Under the pieces are notes generated by a model, which saw only the letters and a program-made list of their open reading frames with translations, did not search any database and was not told the origin of the DNA. Below, piece by piece: positions 1-63,039 of a stretch of 64,000 nt of DNA. This stretch comes from Phycisphaerae bacterium (GTDB lineage: Bacteria > Planctomycetota > Phycisphaerae > UBA1845). Location of the stretch: assembly GCA_963666835.2 (NCBI GenBank), contig CAXXGO010000006.1, positions 512,001-576,000 on the forward strand, written 5' to 3'. The translations under genes were made by a program, and so were the position numbers. Every line of letters begins with the position of its first letter. Positions within the stretch are counted from its first letter, which is position 1.

Positions 1-195
1 TCGGTTGGCACGGGCGTTAAGTTCGGCCTCTCCGGCGTCTTGACGGCCGCCGGGGACATCGTCTACGTGATCGAAGGCACAACCACATTGACCGCCGGAT
101 ACTCCGTGGACGCGACGGCCGGTCAACAGGGCATTACGTTCACCAACGCGCCGAACACCGCACGAAATTACACCGTCGTCTTCCGAGCCCGCTAA
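1..195 (+). CDS. 3' end of a gene entering the window (beta-rich, probably secreted protein)
   Basis: Frame 1 is open from base 1 (SVGTGVKFGLSG...NYTVVFRAR) to TAA at 193-195. Confidence 0.6.
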   Translation, partial: SVGTGVKFGLSGVLTAAGDIVYVIEGTTTLTAGYSVDATAGQQGITFTNAPNTARNYTVVFRAR

Positions 196-279
196 TCCGA
201 GCCGCACCCGCGGCGGGTGACATGGGCCAACTTGCTGGCCCGTGAGGTGGCATGATGATGTCATGTTCTCGCGTAATGT

Positions 280-47936: not shown

Positions 47937-49367
47937 ATGATGAACCGAAAAACCGTCTACCTCGAGACCATGGGCTGCCAGATGAACGTGCTCGACAGCG
48001 AGCTCGTTATGGGACTGCTGCGCAAAGCCGATTACGAAGCGACCGACGACATGACCACCGCCGACTTGGTGCTGCTCAACACGTGCAGTGTGCGCGATCA
48101 CGCGGAGCAGAAAGCCTTTTCTCGCTTGGGCAGTCTGCGCCGGCCCAAGCTCGCCAAGCCGGACATGGTCATCGGGGTTATCGGATGTATGGGTGAGCGC
48201 GATCCCGACGGGATCTTCGAGAAGATGCCGCATGTGAATCTGGTGTGCGGGCCGGCCGAGCTGAACAAGCTGCCGGCCATGATCGAAGAGGCCCGCACCG
48301 GGGGCAAACGGCTGATAGCCCTGTCGCAGGCATGGTCGCGTAAGAGTACCCCGCTGCAGCGGGCTTTGGAGTTCGACTCGGTGGAGGCGCTCGATCAGTC
48401 GCGGGCCCCCGCTTTGCCGGATAGGGTGAGTCAGTCTTATGTTCGCGTTCAACGCGGGTGCGACAAGTTCTGCTCGTTTTGCGTGGTCCCGTATACCCGA
48501 GGTCCGGAGCGGAGCCGCCCGCCGCAGCAGATCATCGATGAGGTGAAGTCCCTGGCCGATCATGGTGCCAAAGAAGTGACGCTTCTGGGGCAGACTGTCA
48601 ATAGCTACGTGCATCAGGAGAGCGGGCGTCCGGTTCGGTTCGCGGAACTGCTGGCCCGGGTCAGCGAGGTGTGGGGCATTGAGCGGGTTCGGTTTGTCAC
48701 CAGCTATCCGGGTGATTTCACGGACGACATTCTCGAAGCGATGCGTGATCTCCCCAACGTGTGCGAGTATTTGCACCTTCCGGTGCAGAGCGGCAGTGAC
48801 GCGGTGCTCAAACGCATGCACCGCCAATATACCGTTGGTGAATACGACGATCTGATCGCTCGTGCGAGGCAGTATGTGCCGAACATCACCATTGCCAGCG
48901 ATTTCATCGTCGGCTTCTGCGACGAGACGGATGAGGAGCATGACGCCTCCGTGGCACTTATCGAGCGGTCGCGTTTCAAGAACATCTTCGTGTTCAAGTA
49001 TTCGGAACGACCCGGTACGGTGGCCGGCCGGCGGATTCCGGACAACGTCCCGGACGAGGTGAAGAGGCGGCGCAATGTGGAGCTTCTTGCGGTTCAGGAA
49101 CGAATCTCCGCCGCCCACAATCAGACCCTGATCGGCGACACGGTGGAGGTACTTGTCGAGGGTTTCAGCAAGGCGGCGATGAAAGCCCAGGAGGCGGAAC
49201 AGTCGCGTGGCGCGGAGATCGGCTGGCGCCAATCCGACCAGCTAATCGGCCGCACGCGCGGTGATCAGATCGTTGTCTTCCCCGGCGCGACCAACCACAT
49301 CGGCAGTCTCGCAACCGTTCTGATCACCGATGCCACCGCCCTGACCCTCCACGGCACTTTGCAGTAA
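47937..49367 (+). CDS. miaB: tRNA-i6A37 methylthiotransferase
   Basis: TMGCQMNVLDSE, NTCSVRDHAEQK, GCDKFCSFCVVPYTRG, LLGQTVNSY and C-terminal TRAM domain. Confidence 0.96.
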   Translation: MMNRKTVYLETMGCQMNVLDSELVMGLLRKADYEATDDMTTADLVLLNTCSVRDHAEQKAFSRLGSLRRPKLAKPDMVIGVIGCMGERDPDGIFEKMPHVNLVCGPAELNKLPAMIEEARTGGKRLIALSQAWSRKSTPLQRALEFDSVEALDQSRAPALPDRVSQSYVRVQRGCDKFCSFCVVPYTRGPERSRPPQQIIDEVKSLADHGAKEVTLLGQTVNSYVHQESGRPVRFAELLARVSEVWGIERVRFVTSYPGDFTDDILEAMRDLPNVCEYLHLPVQSGSDAVLKRMHRQYTVGEYDDLIARARQYVPNITIASDFIVGFCDETDEEHDASVALIERSRFKNIFVFKYSERPGTVAGRRIPDNVPDEVKRRRNVELLAVQERISAAHNQTLIGDTVEVLVEGFSKAAMKAQEAEQSRGAEIGWRQSDQLIGRTRGDQIVVFPGATNHIGSLATVLITDATALTLHGTLQ

Positions 49368-49495
49368 AAAGGGGTCGGGAGTCTTTTTTGGGGCATTTGC
49401 CGGCGGTGGGGACTTCTGTTGACGCCGCGAAGACGTTTGATAAGGCTCCGCAACGAGAAACGTGCCCAAAAAAGACTCCCGACCCCTTTTTACTG
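49362..49495. repeat. REPIN-like element: 31-bp perfect inverted repeat (CAGTAAAAAGGGGTCGGGAGTCTTTTTTGGG)
   Basis: 49362-49392 is the reverse complement of 49465-49495; a single arm recurs at 54347-54372. Confidence 0.85.
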
Positions 49496-49628: not shown

Positions 49629-50933
49629 ATGTTCAAAGACCTCACGCCGCCATCGGACGGCTCCCGCATCACCATGACCGCCCAAGGTCTCGACGTCCCC
49701 AACCGGCCAATCCTCCCGTTCATCGAGGGGGACGGGACCGGACGCGACATCTGGCGGTCGGCCGTGGCGGTTCTCGACGCCGCCGTGAAACTGGCCTACG
49801 GAAACGAACGCAGCGTAGCCTGGTTCGAGGTCTTCGCCGGACAGAAATCATACGACCGCTTCGGTACCTGGCTGCCGGATGACACAGTACAGGCATTTCG
49901 GGACTATCTGGTCGGAATCAAAGGGCCGTTAACCACCCCCGTCGGCGGCGGGATTCGGTCTTTGAATGTGGCCCTGCGGCAGATGCTCGACCTGTACGTC
50001 TGTCTGCGCCCGGTACGCTACTTCACCGGCGTACCTTCCCCGGTGCGCCGTCCGGAACTCGTGGATATGGTCATCTTCCGCGAGAACACCGAGGACATCT
50101 ACTCCGGCATCGAATGGGCTGCGGAAACGCCCGATGCCAGGAAGGTCATCGCGTTCCTGCAAGATGCCATGGGCGTAGACAGAATCCGCTTCCCCGAGAC
50201 GAGCGCAATCGGGATCAAGCCGGTCAGCAGGGAAGGCAGCAAACGCCTGATCCGCGCGGCTATTAACTACGCCATCGCCAACAACCGCAGAAGCGTAACC
50301 CTCATGCACAAAGGCAATATCATGAAGTTCACCGAGGGGGCCTTCCGCGATTGGGGTTATGAACTGGCCGAAGGGGAGTTCGCCGAGCGAACCTACACCT
50401 GGCTGCACTGGGAGCGAACCAGGCAAGACCAGGGCGAAGAGGCCGCCAACACCGAACAAGAGCAAGCCCTCGCCGCCGGCCGGGTCCTCATCAAAGACGC
50501 CATCGCCGATATAACCCTGCAACAGGTGCTCACCCGCCCCAGTGAGTTCGACGTGATCGCGACCTTGAACCTCAACGGCGACTACGTCTCCGATGCTCTG
50601 GCCGCTCAGGTCGGCGGGATCGGCATCGCCCCCGGCGGGAACATCAACTACGACACGGGCCACGCCATCTTCGAAGCCACCCACGGCACCGCTCCCAAAT
50701 ATGCCGACCTGGACAAGGTCAACCCCGGCAGCGTGATCCTGTCGGGCGAGCTGATGTTTCGCTATCTGGGCTGGACCGAAGCAGCCGACCTGATCATCAA
50801 GGGCATGGACGGAGCCATCGGCGCCCGCGAAGTCACCTACGATTTCGAGCGCCTCATGCGCGCCGAAGGCATAAGCGCTACCCTGCTCAAATGCAGTGAG
50901 TTCGGTCAGGCGGTTATCAAGCACATGAGCTGA
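49629..50933 (+). CDS. icd: NADP-dependent isocitrate dehydrogenase
   Basis: [40 protein letters not shown] and [11 protein letters not shown] motifs. Confidence 0.97.
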
Positions 50934-50975
50934 ATAACATCCGGTAGAGACGCCCCTCGCTGCGGCAATGCCCGG

Positions 50976-52391
50976 CTATCGTGACACTTGTACGCCCGGC
51001 AGTTCGGTTATTAAGAACCGGGCGATTCGTTCAGCGACAACCTCGTGTCCGTCCGGGGTCCAGTGTTGATCGTACGTGAAGTAGGTTTGCCTGCCTCCGG
51101 CAACTGCGGTACGTAGCGGAGCGGTCACGCTAAGAAACGGAATGGACTCCCGTCGGCACCATTCTTCGATTACCGCCTCCCGGGCATCGAGGCGCTGACG
51201 CAGGTTGGCCAGAAACTCCGCTGCTTCCGGCAGGTCCTTTTTATATCGCAGTTTCATGAACGCCCGGACCTTGGCCGCATCCAGCCGGTCCGCCACCAGC
51301 GGCAGCGCAACGTGCGCTTTCAGCGGGGCAAACGCGACGATGAACTGAATGCCGGCGTCTTGGCACAACTTGTTCATCTGGGCGAGCTGCCCGCGCGGAT
51401 TGTACCAGTGTTTGTCGCTTTCGAATTCCGCCCGGCTCTCGTAGAGATCGCGAAGCTGCTTCGGCGCAAAGGCGTAGTGCTTGGCTTCGGGCCCTTCCGG
51501 GATGGCCAGCGGCAGCCAGTCCAGCACCTCCACCCCGCGAACCGGACCGTCCCGGTTGATCGGACCGAACGTATCGATCATGAACCGGTCGGCGGCCTGC
51601 AGGATAACCGAACGCTCGACGTATTCCTTCAGCCGCTTCGACACACTGGGCGACCGCCGCTTCCGATCGCTCTTGGCCGATCGGAAATCGTTGCCCTCGT
51701 ACAGCAAACATACCACGTATCGCGGCTTCAGCGCCAGACCATGTTCCTTCAACGATTCCAGATAGTGAAACGGGTCGTAGCCGGACATGCCGAGGTTGTA
51801 TACCCTCAGCCCGCTCCGCCGCCCCAGCTCGACCGGCCAGACGTGATCGTCGGACACGCCCGATCCCTCGGCAAAGGAATCACCGAGCACCACTACATCG
51901 TACTGCTCTTCGACATCCCGATTACGGTAGCCGCGCTCGTCGGTGTGCAGTTGGCAATCGACTTTACCGTACCCGGGCGGGGCGTTCGGGTACGTTCGGC
52001 TGGCCTGCGGCTTATCCTCGAACACCACGTGGAATTCCCCGTTGGGTGGGCGATGGTAGGCCACGCTGTCACGGACGTAGTGCTCGGTTGCCGGCTTGCG
52101 TAGAAGGAAATCCACCAGGACCAACGCCGGCAGCAGAACCAGCAAGGTCGCTACGACCTGGAACCACCGCTTTTTGTACGTCGCTCCCGTGGACCAATCG
52201 ACGTAGAAGCTGATCAGCGAAACGATGAACACGCCCACAATCCAGGTGAAGTGCGTTCTCGAGTACCGCCCCAGCATCACGTGCCGGTCGCGGGCGATCT
52301 GTTCGACGACGTCGCTGGGAATGATCCACAGCGCCAGGTTCGTAACGATGACGATGGCCAGCCAGATCTTCTGTCGGGGAATCAGCTTCAT
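50976..52391 (-). CDS. Membrane-anchored SGNH/AlgX-like O-acetyl esterase or transferase
   Basis: Three N-terminal TMs; LGDSFAEG, NLGMSG, GND and DQHWTPDGH motifs. Confidence 0.85.
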   Translation of the reverse strand: MKLIPRQKIWLAIVIVTNLALWIIPSDVVEQIARDRHVMLGRYSRTHFTWIVGVFIVSLISFYVDWSTGATYKKRWFQVVATLLVLLPALVLVDFLLRKPATEHYVRDSVAYHRPPNGEFHVVFEDKPQASRTYPNAPPGYGKVDCQLHTDERGYRNRDVEEQYDVVVLGDSFAEGSGVSDDHVWPVELGRRSGLRVYNLGMSGYDPFHYLESLKEHGLALKPRYVVCLLYEGNDFRSAKSDRKRRSPSVSKRLKEYVERSVILQAADRFMIDTFGPINRDGPVRGVEVLDWLPLAIPEGPEAKHYAFAPKQLRDLYESRAEFESDKHWYNPRGQLAQMNKLCQDAGIQFIVAFAPLKAHVALPLVADRLDAAKVRAFMKLRYKKDLPEAAEFLANLRQRLDAREAVIEEWCRRESIPFLSVTAPLRTAVAGGRQTYFTYDQHWTPDGHEVVAERIARFLITELPGVQVSR

Positions 52392-52734
52392 GTCTCGGTC
52401 CGTCTGTCGAAGCGCGATGCGGCCTCGCCCCTGTCGGCGGACCGGCCGCATTCCGCAGAGCACTCTGCGGAAAACCGACCCCGGCCCATCAGCGGCTCAC
52501 AATCGCATCCGGCGCCCGCACGGACGACCCAGAGGCCGGGTCCGCTGCTTCAGGCCGCGATACTAACTTACCGTTAAGTTCGCGACAAACGCCCCACAGG
52601 TCCGCACCCGGCGGTATCGATCTTGCGAGGCTCGTGGATACCGCAAAGAGCGGGAGGGCGTTATGATAGGGCTCTCCGGCCGGATGGCCGGGGTGAGGAA
52701 TCTATCTTCAGACTGTTTCGTGAGTTAGCAGTCC

Positions 52735-52820
52735 GTTGAAAAAGGGTACAGGCACCTCGCCGAGGGCGCTTCACGGTACGGTAAGTCGGCATCGGCTCGG
52801 AGCCAGTCCCCCTTTTCAAC
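52735..52820. repeat. REP-like element GTTGAAAAAGGG...CCCCTTTTCAAC in the gltX leader
   Basis: Terminal inverted repeats; GGAGCCAGTCCCC inner motif. Confidence 0.6.
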
Positions 52821-52843
52821 AGCCTCTTACGCGAGGGTTTGCC

Positions 52844-54349
52844 GTGGCTGACAATGTTACCGACACCGTTCGAGTGCGGTTCGCTCCTTCTCCGACGGGT
52901 TATCTGCACATCGGCGGAGCCCGCACGGTGCTGTTCAACTGGCTGGTCGCGCGCCAAACCGGCGGGACGTTCGTCCTGCGCATAGAGGACACCGACCGGA
53001 CCCGCCACGTCGAGGACTCCGTCGGGAAGATCCTCGACGATCTGCAGTGGCTCGGCCTCAACTGGGACGAAGGACCGAACGTCGGCGGGGACTGCGGACC
53101 ATACTTCCAAAGCGAACGGCTCGACCTTTACAACAAGTACCTTCAGCAACTGCTGGAATCCGGCGAAGCGTACTATGCCCTGGAGACACCGGAGCAGCTT
53201 GAGGCCATGCGCGAACAGGCCCGGCGCGAGAAGCGCAACGTCAACTACACCCGCCCGGATCCGGTCCCGACCATTGCCCAAGGACTCGCCGCGAAGGAGC
53301 AGGGACACCCGGTAGTCATTCGGCTGAAGATGCCGGGCACGGCCATCACGGTTGTTGATGAGATCCTCGGCGAAGTGACCCTGGAGGCGGACCAACTCGA
53401 GGACTTCGTAATCCAAAAGAGCGACGGATATCCGACCTATCATTTCGCGTGTGTGGTCGATGACGCGCTGATGAGGATCACGCACGTGCTCCGCGGGCAA
53501 GAGCATCTTATGAACACGCCCAAGCACATCGCCATCCAGCGGGCGTTGGGCTTTGCCACTCCGCATTACGGTCACATGCCGGTCATCTTCAACATGGACG
53601 GCAGCAAGATGAGCAAGCGGGACAAGGAAAAGGCGCTCAAAGAAGGGCGCCAACCGCCGGAGATAGACGTACACGATTTCCGCGAGTCCGGTTACCTGCC
53701 CGAGGCTTTGTTGAACTTCATCTCGCTGTTGGGCTGGTCCACCGGCGACGATCAGGAGCAGATCGACGTAGCCGAGACCATCAAACGATTCCGCATCGAG
53801 CGGATCGGCAAAACCAACGCCAAGTTCGATCGCGAGAAGCTTCTGTCGTTCAATACGGACTGGGCGGCGCGGCTTTCATCGGAGCGACTGTTGGAGGCCT
53901 TCAAGGACTTCCTTTCTATCAACCCGAATGTTCCCGCGAATATGACCACGGCCGACGATGCGGTGCTGCCGCGCGTTCTCGAAGTGTGCGCCGGGTTCCG
54001 GACCTTTGTTGACGTTGTCAAGAAGGCCGGGTTCCTTTTCGTGGACGACGACGCTATTGAATACGATCCCAAGGCGGTCAAGAAGGTCCTGGCTAAGAAT
54101 GACGGCGAAGGTTACGCCGTGCTAGAGGCTCTGATACCGAAGCTGGAGGCCGTGACCGACTGGTCGGCCGGTCCTCTGGAGGAGCTGATCAATGGGGTTG
54201 TTGTGGAACGTCAGACCAAGCTCGGCAAGATCGCTCAACCGATTCGGGTCGCCGTCAGCGGCAGTACGATAAGCCCGTCGATCCACGACACGCTTGTTCT
54301 GCTCGGCAAGCCGCGAACGCTGACCCGACTGAAGCAGTGTATGCGCTAA
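52844..54349 (+). CDS. gltX: Glutamate--tRNA ligase
   Basis: RFAPSPTGYLHIGG, LRIEDTD, ITHVLRG and KMSKR motifs. Confidence 0.97.
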   Translation: MADNVTDTVRVRFAPSPTGYLHIGGARTVLFNWLVARQTGGTFVLRIEDTDRTRHVEDSVGKILDDLQWLGLNWDEGPNVGGDCGPYFQSERLDLYNKYLQQLLESGEAYYALETPEQLEAMREQARREKRNVNYTRPDPVPTIAQGLAAKEQGHPVVIRLKMPGTAITVVDEILGEVTLEADQLEDFVIQKSDGYPTYHFACVVDDALMRITHVLRGQEHLMNTPKHIAIQRALGFATPHYGHMPVIFNMDGSKMSKRDKEKALKEGRQPPEIDVHDFRESGYLPEALLNFISLLGWSTGDDQEQIDVAETIKRFRIERIGKTNAKFDREKLLSFNTDWAARLSSERLLEAFKDFLSINPNVPANMTTADDAVLPRVLEVCAGFRTFVDVVKKAGFLFVDDDAIEYDPKAVKKVLAKNDGEGYAVLEALIPKLEAVTDWSAGPLEELINGVVVERQTKLGKIAQPIRVAVSGSTISPSIHDTLVLLGKPRTLTRLKQCMR

Positions 54350-54489
54350 AAAAGGGGTCGGGAGTCTTTTTTGACAAAACCGGGACAAAACCGGGGACGA
54401 CAAAACCGGGACAAAACCGGGGACAGTCACCTATTTACCGGGTCCTTCCGGCATGACCGTCGTATCTTCTCCGCTGACAAAACCCGGAC

Positions 54490-54928
54490 AAAACCCGGGA
54501 CAGTCACCTATTTACCGGGTCCTTTCGGCATGACCGTCGTATCTTCTCCGCTGGCGCGTGGCGTCCTAAGGCGGCCCACGGGTAGCGGGCGGAGCCGACG
54601 GTTCAGCTTATGTTCGAGCTTACTCGAAGAACGAGTCGGTGGCCAGCGGTCGTCCGCGGTGCGTGCATGTGCGCAGCTTGGCGGAGTCGTCCGGGTCGTC
54701 GGGCTCACGCAGGGTTTCCCGCCAACTCTCCGGCTTCCATTCCCTGGCCCAGGCGGTCAGATCGAGTTGGCCGCTGGGGTCCGGCTCGCCGACGTGGGCG
54801 GGCGCGCTTGACCACGAATATCGCCACGGCATGCGAGCCACCTTCGCCCGGACCGGGTTCCGCTCGCCGTACCGCAACGCCCGCCACAGGTGCAACTCGC
54901 AGATAAATAGGTGACTGTCCCCGGTTTT
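54490..54928 (-). mobile_element. 439-bp non-autonomous element, copy 1 (RAYT/Y1 transposase 3' fragment between ~25-bp inverted repeats); partial duplicate and stutter at 54374-54489
   Basis: Ends AAAACC(C/G)GGGACAGTCACCTATTTA and TAAATAGGTGACTGTCCCCGGTTTT; minus-strand translation RALRYGERNPVRA...WSSA...GRPL. Confidence 0.85.
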
Positions 54929-55375
54929 GTCCCTTCGTATCTCCCATGGAATCCGACGCCGATCCCTGGGCCAGGAGATTGGCTCCGGCTCTCCCGAAGC
55001 CGCTTTGTTCCGGGTGGAGATGACAGGATGTCCCACGTTCCTGGGGGACCCTCGTGTGTACATGCCCTGCTCTTAGACCCCGGTGGGATCGGATACGCCC
55101 AACCGATCAAGGCGATCCGATGCTGCCTTCCGTACGGTGTGGACGACGTCGGCTCCCACGAATAGCCCTCTTTCGAGGCTCAATCACACGGCCTGCACAC
55201 TCGCGGTCTACGCTTCGCAGTGCAGGTTACCCGTACACCACGCAAGACTCCCTTCCGGCTGTCGGTCTACTTTGCCGGGCAGGATTGAGTACCCGCCGGG
55301 TCCCGGCGAAAGGTTTCATGCTGTCATCAAGGATCCATGTCGCAATCCTCCTACCCCAGGCTTTCCGTGGCGCAC
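54929..55375 (-). mobile_element. 5' fragment of a second group II intron (domain I to about II/III; no ORF or domain V)
   Basis: Minus strand starts GTGCGCCACGGAAAGCC; motifs parallel intron 1 (TGAGCC..GAAA, GCCGACG-loop-GGAAGGC, GGAAC...GGGA); cut off by element copy 1. Confidence 0.8.
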
Positions 55376-55905
55376 CCGCATTCCGGGCATACGCCCGATA
55401 CGTTTCCGGTAAGATCATATCCGCAGCCAGCGCAGAGGCCACGTTTGCGCCGATGGCGACGGCGAAGTGGGCCGCGGATGAACGTGACGGCCGGGTAGGC
55501 CGCCAGAAGACACGCAATAACCCAAAGGCACCTGGGCGATACATAAGCGGACAGACCCCATTCACAAGACGGACCCTTTGGGTAGGTGACGTTGAGACCA
55601 ATCACTCGCTCAAAACGCGATCCCTCGCCGAGACCTTCAGATGCCATCCTCGGAGGATAAGCACAGTACGAAAGTGCGTCGTACTGGCATACAGTAACAT
55701 CGAAGTACACCACACCGTTTTCCAAGAGGGAGGCGTCGCACCACCACGGAATGGTTGTCCATCCCTCCACGCTAAACCACGACCCATAGTACCGCCCCAA
55801 CGATCCATAAGACAGACACACTCCGACAAATGCCGTCGACACCGCCCCCAACGTCAACCCAACAATAATGGCAGCGCGCAGCATGCTGAGAATCTCGCGA
55901 ATCAT
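55351..55905 (-). CDS. Membrane protein with C-terminal zinc ribbon (CAGCGYDLTGNVSGVCPECG); last codons supplied by the intron
   Basis: AAGGAG RBS; two hydrophobic segments; basic run followed by CxxC...CxxC. Confidence 0.8.
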   Translation of the reverse strand: MIREILSMLRAAIIVGLTLGAVSTAFVGVCLSYGSLGRYYGSWFSVEGWTTIPWWCDASLLENGVVYFDVTVCQYDALSYCAYPPRMASEGLGEGSRFERVIGLNVTYPKGPSCEWGLSAYVSPRCLWVIACLLAAYPAVTFIRGPLRRRHRRKRGLCAGCGYDLTGNVSGVCPECGCATESLG

Positions 55906-55973
55906 GGCGTGATCTCCTTGCCACGTTGCGGACAGGCACCAGTAATGGCCACCCCCGTGAAGTCGTACTGGGC

Positions 55974-56412
55974 AAAACCGGGGACAGTCACCTATTTACC
56001 GGGTCCTTTCGGCATGGCCGTCGTGTCTTCTCCGCTGGCGCGTGGCGTCCTAAGGCGGCCCGCGGGTAGCGGGCGGAGCCGACGGTTCAGCTCATGTTCG
56101 AGCTTACTCCAAGAACGAGTCGGTGGCCAGCGGTCGTCCGCGGTGCGTGCATGTGCGCAGCTTGGCGGAGTCGTCCGGGTCGTCGGGCTCACGCAGGGTT
56201 TCCCGCCAACTCTCCGGCTTCCATTCCCTGGCCCAGGCGGTCAGATCGAGTTGGCCGCTGGGGTCCGGCTCGCCGACGTGGGCGGGCGCGCTCGACCACG
56301 AATATCGCCACGGCACGCGAACGACCTTCGCCCGGACCGGGTTCCGCTCGACGTACCGCAACGCCCGCCACAGGTGCAACTCGCAGATAAATAGGTGACT
56401 GTCCCCGGTTTT
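55974..56412 (-). mobile_element. 439-bp element, copy 2; right terminal repeat reiterated to 56487
   Basis: Near-identical to copies 1 and 3; translation LRYVERNPVRAKVVRVPWRYSWSSA. Confidence 0.85.
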
Positions 56413-57042
56413 TCGCCAATAGGTGACTGTCCCCGGTTTTTCGCCGGTTTTTCCGGTTTTCCCGAATAGGTGATTGTCCCCGGTTTTCCCTCAATCCAGT
56501 AACGCGCGCAATCCGCCCTCCAACGCAGGGAACGACGGTGCGTCCTGCCTGCGGAGTGGGACCCTATCGGTCGGCGCCTACACCACCGGAGGGCGGGCGG
56601 AACGGACCAGGCGACGGACGATCGAGTGGGCCGCAGACGGCCCTGTAAGGCAGTCCCCAAAGACCCGGAGTATCCGGCTGAAGGCAGGCACGGCTAGGCC
56701 GGGGGATACAATCCCCGCGCCTGTTCTTGCGACGGTCTTCTTGAGGCCGCAATAAGGGATCCCTACGCGACCGGTTGCGTGGCAATCCCGAGTCATGCGG
56801 GTACCTCCCTCGCTCGGACAGAGCGGAGCGGGCCTCGCCCTCGCGCCGCATCCATCAAGAGGCATAAGCCCGCGGGATCGCCAGTTTTACCCCGACATGG
56901 AATGCCGCTCAGTGCATTCAGCAGGGCCGGGACCGGTGGTTATCTGGGTCGACGGGAGAGGTCCCCGACAGTACGATGATAAACTGGTGAACATCGTCTT
57001 TGTTCAAGGCTCCCGACATATGCGATCCACAGGAATTAGCCC

Positions 57043-58281
57043 ATGGCCACCATCCTCATCCTCGAAGACGAAACCGGCTGGAATGACGTGGTCACCGCAG
57101 CGATCAGGAATGGCAGCCTGCCGGATTGTTCGGTTCACATCGCACAGACGTACGGACAGGCAGCTAGCCTAATTGAACAACACGGATTCGACATCGCGCT
57201 ATTGGACTACGCACTTCAGCGTTCGAGCCCCGAGAGTGACGGGGCGGGTCTCGACGTGGCGCGCAAGCTTCGGTCTGTATCGCCTGTTGCACTCGTACTC
57301 CTGGTATCCAAGGTCGCCCCTGACAACCTACGTGCGGAGTGTGAGCGACTGGGCGTAACTCTGATCGAGAAGGGGCGACGGGATCTTGTGGATGAGCTCC
57401 TGCGACAGATCCGCAATCGATTACAGCTGGACCAGAAGACCCTGAACAGCCAATGGCTACCGGAGGAGGATACGAACCTGCCGGGAGCATTCGCCGACAT
57501 AGTCTCCAAGAAGGTGATGGCAGAATACTCAGTGTTGCGCAAGGAGCTGCAGGAGCTGCGACTCGCACACGCAGTGTTGGGCGTTCAGCATGACGTCAAG
57601 AGTGTCCTGTGGCTCCCTCGATTTTTCGAGGGTGTCGAAGGCATGCGTGACTCCATCTCCGCTCAGCTCGAACGCCTGCGTACCATGTTCGATCGGTCTT
57701 GTACCGCTGCTAGGGTGGTAAGTAATTCGTACGTGTTCTCGCGCAGAGCGACGTGTGATGTGGCGGGCGTGCTGCGCGAGTTCTTCCCTCCGCAGGCACC
57801 TGGCGAGGTCCAGTACTTATCTCCGCTCATGGAGTGTCGCGCAAACGTGCTCTTAAGAACTGCCGGCATTTCTGATGAGCCCTTGGAAGTACAATGCGAT
57901 AAGAAGCTGATCGAGTTGGCGATTCTGGTTCTTCCCGTCCTGGTTTACCATCTCACGGATATCCGCCTAACTGACGATCACCGGCCCATTGAAGCCATCA
58001 TATCATGCGCAGGGACGCGGACTCGTCGCATGCAGATGACCATAGTCGTGGCGGCCTCAACAACCAGTCTGTCAAACAAGAGCAAGGAGTGCGATTTGGC
58101 CTCGCACTACGTTCACTATACGAATCTGCTGTGTGGCCCCGTTATTCCTTGGGAGGCGTTCGTAAAGGCCTTCAAATACTACGGAGCAGCAGTCTCGTTC
58201 AAGCGGCTAGACAGAGCCACATATATCGAAATCGAACTAGAGGCCGCGTCGGGAAAGGAGAAGTCAGGTGCTCCACTTTAG
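57043..58281 (+). CDS. Receiver domain fused to a degenerate histidine-kinase-like region
   Basis: ILILEDE, IALLDY, GLDVARKLR, IEKG; later HDVKS (H-box-like) without clear G-boxes; atypical codon usage. Confidence 0.7.
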   Translation: MATILILEDETGWNDVVTAAIRNGSLPDCSVHIAQTYGQAASLIEQHGFDIALLDYALQRSSPESDGAGLDVARKLRSVSPVALVLLVSKVAPDNLRAECERLGVTLIEKGRRDLVDELLRQIRNRLQLDQKTLNSQWLPEEDTNLPGAFADIVSKKVMAEYSVLRKELQELRLAHAVLGVQHDVKSVLWLPRFFEGVEGMRDSISAQLERLRTMFDRSCTAARVVSNSYVFSRRATCDVAGVLREFFPPQAPGEVQYLSPLMECRANVLLRTAGISDEPLEVQCDKKLIELAILVLPVLVYHLTDIRLTDDHRPIEAIISCAGTRTRRMQMTIVVAASTTSLSNKSKECDLASHYVHYTNLLCGPVIPWEAFVKAFKYYGAAVSFKRLDRATYIEIELEAASGKEKSGAPL

Positions 58282-58578
58282 TGCGGAAGCGAGCCATTCT
58301 GCGAGATCCGTACCCCTGCCGGCGTCAGCCTGTCTCGTGGAGGACATTCCAGGTGGTAGTCTCAAGGTTAGCCGGGGTATCCTGTGGTTTGCCACTAGCG
58401 ATAGCTCGAGGGAGATGGTCGCGAGTCCTTCGACGCCCTGAAGCCACGACGGACGATTATGTCAGGTTTCGACGAGCACCTTATCATGAGCGTGATCTGG
58501 ATCTCCCGGATCTCTAGCACGCGAATGGTTCTGACGCTAAACTGGAGCATCAACGGGCACAGTTGAGGAGGCCAGGCG

Positions 58579-59970
58579 GTGGACGTCTTGCTAGGCGCAT
58601 GGGGATTAGGTGACTGGGCACACGCGCGCGGTGGTCCGCGGGGTAATCGCACTCCTGAGCGATCTCGAGTCAATCTGGGGATTCCTCCAATGTCCGCGCG
58701 GTACCCAGGCTGCGTAGAACTGTTCCCATTTCTCCTTTTTGATCATGTCTTCGTGGACAAGCGTTCCTATCAATCCTTGTTGGCTGATGCTGTCCTAGGC
58801 TTTCGAATCTCGAGCAGGAGTAAGGAGATCCTCCAGGAGTTTCACCGGGACGGCATCTTGGTGACTGTGGATTATCTAGATATCCTCTCCGGTGAAGTGG
58901 ACAGGATAGTTGAAGGTGCGGAGGCCGATTTGGACGCGGTTGACCTTGCGGAGTCGATCAGAGAGTCTCGCCGCCTTTGGAGCCAGTTCCTCACTAGCCC
59001 GGGTGGGAAGTTCCATCCCAGACGAGAAGCGGAACTGGACGGTACCCGTTTTGAACTGAGATTGCTGGGGATCCCGCTCGACAAAGCCGAGTTGCGGCGT
59101 AGATCAGCACACGATGTGTACGATGTGAACACGATGGTGGTTCTGTCTACAAAGCTGAGTGCGGCTGTATGTGATTGGCAGATGTATCGACCTTTCTATG
59201 ATCAGAAGATGGTGACTTCGTTCCGCGGGCCGTCATCAGGTACTCGTGCGAACGCCGACATCCTACACGAGAATTTGGACGTCTACTTACCGATGCCTGC
59301 GAGCGCCGAGCTTGAGTCCCTCTATCGAATTCGTGAAGAGAGCGTCTTGAGAGCTTTCCGAGACTACGCAGCGTTTCTCAGGCGTTCGGAAACGGAGTTC
59401 ACACCACAGGCTTTCATCGAATTACGCCGACGACTTCTCGAACTTGGCGAAGGTCCAATATCCCAGATAAGTGTGTTTTCAACTTCGGCTCCCAGCGCGT
59501 CTGTATTCTCCGAGGAGACAGTACGGATGATTGTCAGGGAGGAGGTGGAAAGGCGCCTACAGGAGCAGAGCCATGAGGCCACGCCTCTGCGCCAGCTGTT
59601 TCAGATCATTGGGAGCATACACATGGGCGATACGTACAAAGCGGTACAGGCTGGAACAATGGGCCCGCATACTGGGACGAGCAATGCCTCGTTACAGCAA
59701 ACGTGGATCCAACTACAGGAGCAGATCGACCTGGCGTCCTTGCCGGAGGAGCTCTCCCTGCTACGGACTGCGATGCGAAAGAGGGCCAGCGCGCCAGAGC
59801 ATGACGTTTCAACTGGTGAGATCGGCGCCGCCGAGCGAGCTGCAGAATCCGGCGATGGTGCAAAGGTATTAGAACACCTGCGAAGTGCTGGAAGGTGGGC
59901 TTTTGATTGTGCACGTGAGATTGGGGTGAGCGTAGCCTCCGAAGCACTTAAGAAGTCCCTGGGACTGTAG
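58579..59970 (+). CDS. Hypothetical protein with C-terminal MGDTY..QAG..GP segment and helical domain
   Basis: 463-codon ORF with atypical codon usage; start may be GTG 58579 (after GAGGAGG) or ATG 58690. Confidence 0.7.
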   Translation: MDVLLGAWGLGDWAHARGGPRGNRTPERSRVNLGIPPMSARYPGCVELFPFLLFDHVFVDKRSYQSLLADAVLGFRISSRSKEILQEFHRDGILVTVDYLDILSGEVDRIVEGAEADLDAVDLAESIRESRRLWSQFLTSPGGKFHPRREAELDGTRFELRLLGIPLDKAELRRRSAHDVYDVNTMVVLSTKLSAAVCDWQMYRPFYDQKMVTSFRGPSSGTRANADILHENLDVYLPMPASAELESLYRIREESVLRAFRDYAAFLRRSETEFTPQAFIELRRRLLELGEGPISQISVFSTSAPSASVFSEETVRMIVREEVERRLQEQSHEATPLRQLFQIIGSIHMGDTYKAVQAGTMGPHTGTSNASLQQTWIQLQEQIDLASLPEELSLLRTAMRKRASAPEHDVSTGEIGAAERAAESGDGAKVLEHLRSAGRWAFDCAREIGVSVASEALKKSLGL

Positions 59971-60243
59971 CGCAGGGACCGGCATTCGACAGATATGCTG
60001 TGGAAGGCTGCCTGCTTGCCAACGGATGTTACGTGTTCAATTCCGTGTGCAGGCGGATCAGCGCGCGGGCGCTGCTGCTCTTCTCGCACACATGGCATTC
60101 CTTTTTCACCGAGGTTTCTGGGAGGGCGGAACGACGCCTCGCCAAGCACGCACGTGCGCCTGTACGCGACGTAAGCGGAGTGGATTCCGTTCACGGGTCA
60201 AACACGCTACGAAAACCCGAGCCGAAGAGTTGGCAAAACCCGG

Positions 60244-60682
60244 AAAACCCGGGACAGTCACCTATTTACCGGGTCCTTTCTGCATGACCGTCGTATCTTC
60301 TCCGCTGGCGCGTGGCGTCCTAAGGCGGCCCACGGGTAGCGGGCGGAGCCGACAGTTCAGCTCATGTTCGAGCTTACTCCAAGAACGAGTCGGTGGCCAG
60401 CGGTCGTCCGCGGTGCGTGCATGTGCGCAGCTTGGCGGAGTCGTCCGGGTCGTCGGGCTCACGCAGGGTTTCCCGCCAACTCTCCGACTTCCATTCCCTG
60501 GCCCAGGCGGTCAGATCGAGTTGGCCGCTGGGGTCCGGCTCGCCCACGTGGGCGGGCGCGCTTGACCACGAATATCGCCACGGCACGCGAGCCACCTTCG
60601 CCCGGACCGGGTTCCGCTCGACGTACCGCAACGCCCGCCACAGGGGCAACTCGCAGATAAATAGGTGACTGTCCCCGGTTTT
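60244..60682 (-). mobile_element. 439-bp element, copy 3
   Basis: Same length, termini, orientation and frameshift as copies 1 and 2. Confidence 0.85.
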
Positions 60683-60684
60683 AA

Positions 60685-60867
60685 CTAAGCCACACGCGCA
60701 CTCTGGCTCCCGCCAATGCACTGCGGGGGGATATGCTCACTGGTTCCCTGCAACGCCCTGCTCGAGTTCATCAAACTCTCGCCAGTGTAGATACAGCGAT
60801 CGAGCTCGCGCGCTTGCTGAGGAATCTCCGGTATCAAAACGTCCGGCTGCCATTCCGATGTGTCCAT
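60685..60867 (-). pseudogene. Possible N-terminal stub of an HNH-type endonuclease
   Basis: CIYTG...SEHIPPQCIGG resembles the CIYCG...EHIIP..LGG start of HNH proteins; the ORF stops next to element copy 3. Confidence 0.35.
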
Positions 60868-61132
60868 ACTTCGTATTATGTGCAGATTGCCATTCATCTC
60901 AACATGCACACCGCGCGTCTTCGAATCTAGAGGGAAAGAGGTGGGCTTTTCGCGGGAGGTTCCATCGTACGACCGCGTCATTTCAGAATCGACGCCCATC
61001 CAGCCTCAGGATGCGCTCAGCCAGACCCACTTGTGCCGGCACCGCGCAGACGCGCCTGCCCACCTCTTCCGGGCAGGGGGGCACGGCAGAGGGACGAAAT
61101 GTGCGACAAAGACGCACATCGTTTAAAGATCG

Positions 61133-61163
61133 CGGCAGGTCTCGTTCCTCGACGCTGCCCTAC
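61133..61163. repeat. Single inverted REP B copy
   Basis: CGGCAGGTCTCGTTCCTCGACGCTGCCCTAC. Confidence 0.65.
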
Positions 61164-61425
61164 ATGGGCGTCGCCTTTTCTCCAACGTTACTCAGTCGCA
61201 GTCCGCAAGTGCATCCTCGTACCGGTGCGCGGAGCAACGGCGGCCTGGCGCGGGCGCGCACTGGCAATAATCCGGGCTCGGGGCTACAAATAGGCGGGCG
61301 TGCCGGGCGATCTTGACCAGTGTCGCGCCGCGAGGGTGGACAATGGTCAAGTTAGCAGGCTCGCGACGGTAACCGCCCCGGTGGACCGGGTCGGGCGAAA
61401 ACGCTGACTGTGGAGCAGAAGGGCC

Positions 61426-63039
61426 GTGGCCAACTTGTGCATCACCCTCACGGACGGGCGGATGATTCGCCACACGCTCGGCGGCGGGGTCGAGGTTATC
61501 GGGCGGGACCCCACCTGCGAGATTCCGGTGGATGACCCCAGCACGTCGCGCCGGCACGCTCGGTTCACCCCGGCCGCGGGCGGGTATGTCGTGGACGATC
61601 TCGGCAGTAAGAACGGCACGCTCGTCAACGACACGCCCAGCAAATCGCAAATGCTGCGCGACGGAGACGAGATTCTGATCGGCTCGGTACTCGTGGTCTA
61701 CTCCGATTCGCAGCCCGATCCGGCCAGCTCGATCGTGATTTCCAGGGAAAGCGTCAGCCCGGCCACCCGCTACATCACCCGCGACCAGAAACTGAACCTG
61801 CCGCAGCAGCGGCTGGAGATGATCTACGAACTGAGCGAGAGGCTCACCACGCTGCAAGACCGCGAGTCGTTGCTCGATAACGCGATGGACATCTGCTTCG
61901 AGACGCTCCGCTTCGAACGCGGGGCGATCGGAGTGCGGCGGCGGGACGGGCGAATGCTCGACTGGCCCGTTGTTCGCAACCTCCGCGGCAGCGAGGGTGA
62001 GCTGACCATCAGCCATACGCTCCTAAACCGGGCCCTCCAACACGGAGAGCGCGCGATCCTCGCCGATACCGGCGCGGGCAACACCGACCCGACCGTAAGC
62101 ATGGTGCAGCACGGGATCCGCTCGGCCATGTGCGTACCGCTTCACCACCGCAGCGATACGATCGGAGTGATCTACGGCGACCGGATCAGTACGTCCACTA
62201 CGTACTCGACCGAAGACATAGACTTCCTCGCCGGCATTGCTCAGCAGGTAAGCGTTGGACTAATCAACTGCCGACTGCTCGATGAACAACGCGAGACCGC
62301 CCGGCTCCAGCGCGATATCGACCTGGCCCGCACAATCCAGAAAGGGCTGCTCCCGGCATCTCTGCCCCGAACGAATAACCTGCGAATCGCCGCCCTCAAC
62401 GAACCCGGGTTACGCGTCAGCGGCGACTATTACGACGTAATCGAACTCGACGACGGCCGCGTGTGGTGCCTGGTGGCGGACGTTACGGGAGAAGGCCCGG
62501 CCGCGGCGTTGCTCATGGCGAACTTGCAGGCGGCGGTCCGCGTGACGGCCACCGATACGGATGACCCCGCCGAGCTGCTATCACGGTGGAACCACTTGGT
62601 ATATCGCAACACCGATTCGTCCAAGTTCATCACGTGCGTGCTTGCCTTGGTCGAGCCGGATTCGCGCAGAATCAACTTCGCGGCCGCGGGGCACTGCCCG
62701 CCGCTGCTGGTCCGCAGCAAGGACGGCGCGCAAGTCGAGGAGGTCGATACCGAAGCGACTTTCCCGCTGGGCATCGTGGACGACGCGCATTACACAACGA
62801 CTTCGCTGGAGATCGGTCCGGACCCGGCTCTGTTCTTCTGCTATACAGACGGCGTGGTTGAGGCGCTCGAGCCGCAGGGGGGAACGTACGGGTTGGAGCG
62901 CCTGGTCGAGGTTCTCGGCAGCCGGTCTGATCTCAGCGCCGACGGGCTCGTCAAACAGGTCCGTAAGAGCGTCGCCGGGTTCGCCGGAAGCGCCCCGCAG
63001 AGCGATGACATCACCATCTTAGCCGCCCGGATCGGCTGA
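61426..63039 (+). CDS. FHA-GAF-SpoIIE (PP2C) protein phosphatase
   Basis: IGR...SRRHA...SKNGT (FHA); SAMCVPL (GAF); SGDYYD, ADVTG, YTDG, DDIT (SpoIIE). Confidence 0.93.
   Translation: MANLCITLTDGRMIRHTLGGGVEVIGRDPTCEIPVDDPSTSRRHARFTPAAGGYVVDDLGSKNGTLVNDTPSKSQMLRDGDEILIGSVLVVYSDSQPDPASSIVISRESVSPATRYITRDQKLNLPQQRLEMIYELSERLTTLQDRESLLDNAMDICFETLRFERGAIGVRRRDGRMLDWPVVRNLRGSEGELTISHTLLNRALQHGERAILADTGAGNTDPTVSMVQHGIRSAMCVPLHHRSDTIGVIYGDRISTSTTYSTEDIDFLAGIAQQVSVGLINCRLLDEQRETARLQRDIDLARTIQKGLLPASLPRTNNLRIAALNEPGLRVSGDYYDVIELDDGRVWCLVADVTGEGPAAALLMANLQAAVRVTATDTDDPAELLSRWNHLVYRNTDSSKFITCVLALVEPDSRRINFAAAGHCPPLLVRSKDGAQVEEVDTEATFPLGIVDDAHYTTTSLEIGPDPALFFCYTDGVVEALEPQGGTYGLERLVEVLGSRSDLSADGLVKQVRKSVAGFAGSAPQSDDITILAARIG

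Follow-up and report, generated by a model that had tools for sequence, protein, structure and literature searches.

A 64,000-nucleotide stretch of the genome of a Phycisphaerae bacterium (contig CAXXGO010000006.1, positions 512,001 to 576,000; here called the window) contains, downstream of gltX, three direct copies of a 439-bp element that are bounded by inverted ends and separated by unrelated DNA. The closest described systems are the TIRtrons, in which an HUH/Y1 transposase (TIRYT) lies between terminal inverted repeats (TIRs) with GGGGWSAS ends (Di Nocera et al., 2013; PMC3733652; this and the following papers are cited for the accessible part of their text). TIRtrons have been equated with subclass 2.1, the second-largest Y1 group, found in 14.9% of species (Quentin et al., 2018; PMC6006769). 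All 20 subclass-2.1 TIRYTs in that study carry a C-terminal helix–turn–helix (HTH), which is variable in subgroup 2.1.2. Group 1 of the REP-associated tyrosine transposases (RAYTs), where REP stands for repetitive extragenic palindrome, is also among the closest known systems (Bertels et al., 2017; PMC5581495). The accessible text of the TIRtron accounts (PMC3733652, PMC6006769, PMC5581495) describes no gene-fragment derivative, stacked part-copies, cut neighbours or spaced direct arrays, and the same parts of the TIRYT accounts report no activity test.

Two further systems share features with the array. For E. coli TnpA-REP and its bacterial interspersed mosaic elements (BIMEs), a scheme has been proposed in which the 3'-OH at a nick is extended and then attacks the 5' end held on the tyrosine, so that a tandem unit is added, and capture of flanking genes or fragments has also been suggested (Ton-Hoang et al., 2012; PMC3333891, Fig. 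7B legend and model section). REPs are GTAG-tagged hairpins, whereas the ends described here lack GTAG and are mostly unfolded, and the stacked units reach 310 nt. Direct copies of the insertion sequence (IS) IS26 lie around and between unique segments without target duplication, as here; the IS26 transposase, however, is a DDE enzyme of the IS6 family, and high frequency requires the gene to be intact in both copies (Harmer et al., 2014; PMC4196232). Here the copies are dead and the enzyme is of the HUH/Y1 (Y1_Tnp) type. Composite structures formed by miniature inverted-repeat transposable elements (MITEs), of which a 439-bp Acinetobacter MITE is reportedly an example, are similar in that small non-coding TIR elements truncate and bracket foreign DNA. 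The unit in the window is likewise short, TIR-bounded, non-coding and multi-copy, but its source is a Y1 transposase gene and no target-site duplication accompanies it; the equal length of 439 bp is taken as coincidence, the sequences not having been compared. The array works like a pseudo-compound IS array; its unit is, judged by ends and motifs, a TIRtron derivative, and it is neither an integron nor a REPIN system.

The three 439-bp copies

The window corresponds to positions 512001-576000 of contig C6 in an assembly (G000) of 6.02 Mb in 7 contigs that is 92% complete. The 439-bp TIRtron derivative is present here in three copies, all in the same orientation:

54490..54928 (-) copy 1
55974..56412 (-) copy 2
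60244..60682 (-) copy 3

Each copy has 25-bp inverted ends, and the three differ from one another at 9, 11 and 12 bases in pairwise comparison (97–98% identical). They are the only full copies in the assembly and all lie within 6.2 kb. Four of the six ends match GGGGACAG exactly and the other two do so with one mismatch. In 41-nt windows the six ends fold no better than shuffled sequences (z -0.96 to +1.0). Between the ends lies the 3' part of a Y1 transposase gene (codons ~110–238, minus strand), which retains the catalytic tyrosine (119) and lacks the HUH motif (59), the first ~109 codons and the TTGAC promoter box by the upstream end. All three copies share a +1 frameshift, in which one extra base shifts the frame after TDSF; this base is absent from the intact relative described below and from fragments at C6:1369 kb and C6:1424.8 kb. 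With its promoter gone, along with the ~109 initial codons that include the HUH motif, the unit was dead already before the frameshift.

No target duplication is present in any of the nine left/right flank pairings of the copies (exact match 0). With slack, the best shared flank word is 3–5 nt in the nine pairings, and random pairs give 3–6 nt in 484 of 500 cases. A preliminary description of the window had reported the three direct copies with their 25-bp inverted ends, a 3' transposase part with a shared frameshift and a missing target-site duplication, and had proposed a BLAST check of the 439-mer. Coordinates and orientation proved correct, the frameshift is borne out by alignment to the intact relative and the two fragments, the flank pairings agree on the duplication, and the check in the bacterium's own genome returned just the three full copies.

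Derivation from a TIRtron

Its sequence shows that the 439-bp unit, which is non-autonomous, arose by deletion from a TIRtron (TIRYT, HUH/Y1, by ends and motifs of subclass 2.1) and not from a REP-type RAYT. A tblastn search located an intact HUH/Y1 gene (238 aa) at C6:1415081-1415797, enclosed by the same inverted ends. It is 89–91% identical to the 439-bp copies over ~404 nt, so the direct parent would be a sister allele not seen intact. The protein matches Pfam Y1_Tnp (E 3.9e-14) with NHLH at 59, WQ at 99 and YVERNP at 119, and class-2 HUH/Y1 motifs are present when checked against the published subclass table; its score against NF047646, 66.8 bits, lies under the cut-off of 80. The best matches of the transposase in the window are mostly from Phycisphaerae and other Planctomycetes. 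The arrangement of a 238-aa enzyme with a Y---NP motif between inverted repeats with GGGGWSAS, together with orphan, dimeric and clustered ends in the genome, is that of a TIRtron. In contrast to published TIRYTs, no C-terminal HTH was detected in the intact relative, Y1_Tnp being the only match at E <= 0.01.

The same ends recur at homologous loci. Among 80 loci the end was present upstream in 54 of 73 that could be scored, downstream in 54 of 78 and on both sides in 42 of 71, and 58 of 100 family genomes carry the end pattern. Conservation spans about -6 to +16 around a GGGACAG core, and GTAG is absent from the consensus. The downstream end of the intact relative folds (z -3.3), unlike the six ends in the window. 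The derivation from a RAYT given in the preliminary description therefore falls: the parent is a TIRYT with terminal inverted repeats and ends without GTAG, of a kind described in 2013. Its suggested search for an intact parent transposase did succeed, in the form of a ~90% identical relative with the same ends in the same genome. Its view of the unit as a trans-mobilised joint is supported in that the unit is non-autonomous, an intact relative is available in trans, the flanks do not rejoin and unrelated DNA is joined.

The intact TIRYT locus (G000:C6:1415-1425 kb) heads a direct array of its own, in which stacked part-copies of 51–310 nt are accompanied by a chemoreceptor gene, an orphan end with a 264-bp duplication and a second deletion derivative of a different kind. 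A direct fragment lies 9 kb from the intact relative, with DNA in between.

Stacked part-copies at the ends

Part-copies of an end ('stutters') are stacked beside each of the three copies in the window:

54374..54489 (+) left end of copy 1, several part-copies that share the start GACAAAACC; a 77-nt unit among them extends into the element
56413..56492 (-) right end of copy 2, several part-copies
60232..60243 (+) left end of copy 3, a single part-copy

Outer part-copies were found at 69 of 212 end clusters, taken from G000 and fetched homologous loci with six duplicates dropped. Their 5' limit is at -7 to -10 in 62 of the 69, a range whose -7 floor is built into the search anchor, and their 3' limit varies from -1 to +301. 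A simpler test gave outer part-copies at 23 of 109 ends and at 18 of 5000 random positions. Part-copies with a fixed start and a free stop thus fit nicking, extension and resealing onto a tyrosine-linked 5' end, the scheme proposed for TnpA-REP.

One end also differs between strains. Contigs from four runs (three samples, two studies, all short contigs) were compared with the window; two of the runs, X1 and X2, are one sample, perhaps the source, and a third, X3, is from another study and represents a strain about 1% diverged in the flanks. The junction of spacer 1 and copy 2 in X3 has no substitution and 11 extra letters, with a further stacked unit seen. That the end of a dead copy differs between strains points to action in trans.

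Cut neighbours and the nature of the spacers

Recognisable features are cut at three of the six outer junctions:

54933..55375 (-) group II intron, nt 1-443 of 2029, cut at the right end of copy 1 (Rfam RF02005, E 1e-37)
55902..55970 (-) upstream zinc-ribbon paralogue, truncated at the left end of copy 2 to its last ~22 codons
56493..56648 (+) 524-aa island gene, truncated at the right end of copy 2 to a 3' tail of ~50 codons

The intron stub is 95.7% identical to an intact sister intron at C6:1065006-1067034, and the remaining intron part is found in the sister only. It had been noted earlier that the intron cut at copy 1 does not resume on the other side. The two flanks indeed do not rejoin, although the stub stops at 54933 and not at 54929, the four bases between being stacked end sequence. 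The translation of the zinc-ribbon paralogue tail was compared by eye with tandem paralogues on C5. The island-gene tail is 74% identical over 109 bases to another genome, G017 (E 6.7e-12), and G000 has only this tail; the 524-aa gene has HTH/replication-initiator-like neighbours, which is a lead only. Elsewhere in the genome a resolvase gene is cut at another such end (profile 2-81 of 145).

Spacer 1 is about 1.04 kb long and is cut on both edges, and spacer 2, of about 3.74 kb, comprises the island-gene tail, a receiver fusion and a hypothetical gene. The spacers are scraps and not cassettes, the probable sources being an array of zinc-ribbon genes and a mobile island. Foreign codon usage had been ascribed to the receiver/hypothetical gene pair, and low codon adaptation is confirmed for the spacer genes: it is 0.55–0.61, below the first percentile of 0.646 (696 long open reading frames, ORFs; training set filtered for typical codon use).

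The group II intron family inserts at CPECG/CPKCG zinc-ribbon codons in all four copies, one intact and three truncated (window 55375; G000:C6:1065006, C7:26526 and C1:1692576).

Proposed origin of the array

The array is probably, if only by a little, the product of in-place duplication and adjacent deletion by a TIRYT acting in trans. The intact TIRYT elsewhere in the genome would act on the ends of the 439-bp unit, nicking about 8–10 nt outside the GGGACAG core and holding the element-side 5' end on its tyrosine, to which a free 3'-OH would then be joined. This nicking and joining step is drawn from HUH chemistry and from the stutter pattern. A 3'-OH on a strand extended a short way past the nick would yield a stutter; on a strand extended through the element into the flank it would give a direct duplication of element and flank; and a 3'-OH in distant DNA would lead to deletion of the intervening DNA, leaving a cut neighbour. 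Repeated duplication and adjacent deletion could leave three copies in direct orientation, separated by ragged remnants and free of target duplications, and homologous recombination between 97–98% identical copies could then lose one element and one spacer. We infer the action in trans, the nick position, the long duplications and the adjacent deletions; together, duplication and deletion in place would explain why all copies lie together in one orientation.

Several points weigh against this reading. No empty site was seen, and gltX and the phosphatase gene that flank the array are not adjacent in the family loci compared, among which there is no same-genus genome. Each duplication requires a later deletion, because no spacer is duplicated. 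The built-in floor of the part-copy start has been mentioned. The clustering of end sites in G000 speaks for the reading (11 of 30 have a neighbour within 7 kb; the simulated mean is 1.9 and 0 of 5000 simulations reach this), but the count takes in two probably spurious C1 sites and a cluster split by IS insertions. Insertion of IS elements into ends accounts in part for the cluster at C1:366-375 kb. All element pieces on C6 (four loci) are on the minus strand, so strand-biased independent insertion could also give direct copies. Finally, a chitosanase gene that is tightly bracketed by ends in another genome looks moved rather than left behind.

Whether the cargo came with the element or was left by deletions is the main question, and leftovers of in-place events are slightly probable, set against a possible but rather doubtful arrival of moved units in the manner of the translocatable units of IS26. 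Here element and adjacent DNA would be excised elsewhere as a circle or strand. The TIRYT, working at an end, or RecA, working across the 439 bp, would add them beside a resident copy, and repeats of this would build the array from distant pieces. Direct copies, unique DNA between them and no target duplication are what the IS26 model describes (PMC4196232, accessible part). Where two transposase pieces are neighbours within 12 kb they have the same orientation, in 12 of 12 pairs. Adjacent end pairs 0.6–10 kb apart (n=30, pairs mostly filled by transposase having been dropped) face outward in 18 cases, the same way in 12 and enclose DNA in none, so that foreign DNA lies outside the pair in 18 and inside in 0 of 30. 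Many inward pairs were, however, impossible, because the loci were chosen around intact TIRtrons or hand-picked as clusters, and these counts are biased accordingly. The GH46 chitosanase gene (L159:5036-6029 and L177:1501-2497) is 96.6% identical between G066 and its congener G067, in which the backbone is 78–79% identical; it lies between outward-facing ends in G066, and in G067 one edge abuts the stuttered end of another TIRtron family. It is the only one of six bracketed spacers tested in congeners that seems recently moved. Those at L167, L171, L166 and L156 have no near-identical copy in congeners, that at L165 matched only in an IS-like part, and two more distant chitosanase homologues have no end in the flanks examined. 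Contig depth over spacer 2 is 1–5 in X3 compared with 10–14 in the flanks, and is level with the flanks in X1 and X2; this is a hint, and only that, of a strain without spacer 2. Against moved units, no donor scar was found, and the missing parts of the intron and the island gene do not occur elsewhere in the 92% complete assembly.

Independent strand-biased insertions into an already patchy region or existing breaks, with truncations of other cause, are unlikely. A lagging-strand bias is known for IS200/IS605 and offers another cause of shared orientation, but three full copies in 6.2 kb of 6 Mb and three cuts exactly at ends argue against separate events.

A mis-join of the assembly across the 439-bp repeat is very improbable. 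Among the contigs listed for the four runs none spans a whole 439-bp copy, and the copy-1/intron junction is absent from the pieces listed; the order of the copies rests on the assembly for this reason. The copies do, however, differ at 9–12 bases, and the assembly has 7 contigs for 6.0 Mb. X1 and X2 reproduce 50669-54441, 56383-60280 and 60653-61156 without difference, covering four of the six junctions, and X3 contigs supply the fifth (spacer 1/copy 2). In X1 and X2 a single 3898-nt piece holds spacer 2 together with an end on either side. Joining scattered single insertions could not yield a spacer bracketed in this way; only the order could be wrong. Two other contig joints were set aside. 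One, 56066-60573, was rejected as a loss of spacer 2 as it matches an internally deleted derivative at C6:2263 kb, and an opposite-strand joint at 60477, matching the derivative at C6:1424.8 kb, was not counted.

The integron-like array of the preliminary description, with precise cassettes recombined at the 439-bp unit, has next to no probability in spite of the repeat-spacer-repeat layout and the atypical codon use of the spacer genes: with genes and an intron cut at ragged spacer edges at three of the six outer junctions and ends that form no stable hairpin in 41-nt windows it fails, and no integrase is found among the 8 ORFs of the region scanned (a genome-wide IntI search was not made). 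The related idea of DNA capture by the element stands in so far as the unit marks joints between unrelated DNA; capture of gene fragments by this class of enzyme is unproven, though it has already been proposed (PMC3333891, accessible part).

Wider meaning

The element family is known but barely studied. A literature search, with most subscription papers outside its reach, gave no account of TIRYT-derived non-autonomous units in direct arrays, carrying cargo or cutting neighbours. In a scan of JGI metagenomes the right junction of the 439-bp unit had 0 matches, and the general end pattern was found at 21 loci, none with three such copies. The locus offers a testable substrate, namely a 25-bp end, a predicted nick 8–10 nt outside the core and a matching intact enzyme in the same genome, and the footprints (stutters, cut neighbours and direct arrays) indicate what the enzyme does. 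If the units travel with cargo they would represent a new route of gene shuffling; if not, they would still be a source of local deletions.

A more general scheme may be put forward tentatively. TIRYT ends might take any free 3'-OH, such that stutters, cut neighbours and arrays would be one reaction on three scales. Units with a fixed start and a free stop would stack outside a resident end, and dead derivatives could serve as joints that carry genes between loci and species, as with IS26 though by single-strand chemistry, across Planctomycetes and other phyla.

Flanks, spacer genes and other TIRtron families

The remaining features of the locus are as follows:

52835..54349 (+) gltX, glutamyl-tRNA synthetase, left chromosomal flank (Pfam tRNA-synt_1c, E 1e-97)
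54349..54373 (+) orphan TIRtron end (GGGGTCGGGAGTC type, from a second family), placed immediately behind the gltX stop and abutting the first stutter
55351..55905 (-) zinc-ribbon gene, encoding a membrane protein with the motif at its C-terminus and interrupted by the intron at the CPECG codons
57043..58281 (+) fusion of a receiver domain with ~290 C-terminal aa of a ~800-aa GAF-containing protein
58579..59970 (+) hypothetical protein, one full-length homologue (50%)
60685..60999 (-) 104-aa ORF that stops where copy 3 has its right end
61079..61164 (-) 86-bp high-copy repeat with GTAG foot, a separate REP family
61426..63039 (+) FHA-GAF-SpoIIE phosphatase, right chromosomal flank (Pfam)

No end lies beside the G000 orthologues of the usual gltX and phosphatase neighbours. 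The zinc-ribbon gene, which has no Pfam match, is 80.9% identical at the nucleotide level to C5:38080-38638 and belongs to a large paralogue family, with 50 such motifs in the genome. The receiver and GAF-protein parts of the in-frame fusion are separate genes in other proteins, and an unfused two-gene form lies beside an AbiE pair at G000:C1:620-623 kb. The C-terminal module of the hypothetical protein (59620-59970), with a GDTY-x-AxQAG motif, also occurs in a TIR-like protein (P0003) and may resemble signalling amyloid motifs. PADLOC, NCBIfam and atlas searches gave no function for the spacer-2 proteins. The 104-aa ORF, for which homologue searches found none, has what we take to be an HNH-like motif. 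The 86-bp repeat has about 500 BLAST matches genome-wide and a very high contig depth.

The GGGGTCGGGAGTC-type orphan end has 19 other matches in the genome, and its parent is an intact 232-aa transposase on contig C1 between two such ends. About 35 ends of this second TIRtron family are present in the genome, and those in the window (54349-54373, 49366-49390 and 49467-49491) lie between genes. A third TIRtron family flanks C6:1520.3-1521.0 kb, with stutters of its own. An IS4-like DDE element inserts into TIRtron ends, duplicating the 12-bp core, at four loci (L004, G000:C1:368218-369733; L159; L162; L191), and an ISL3 element lies in the same cluster as the insertion at L004.

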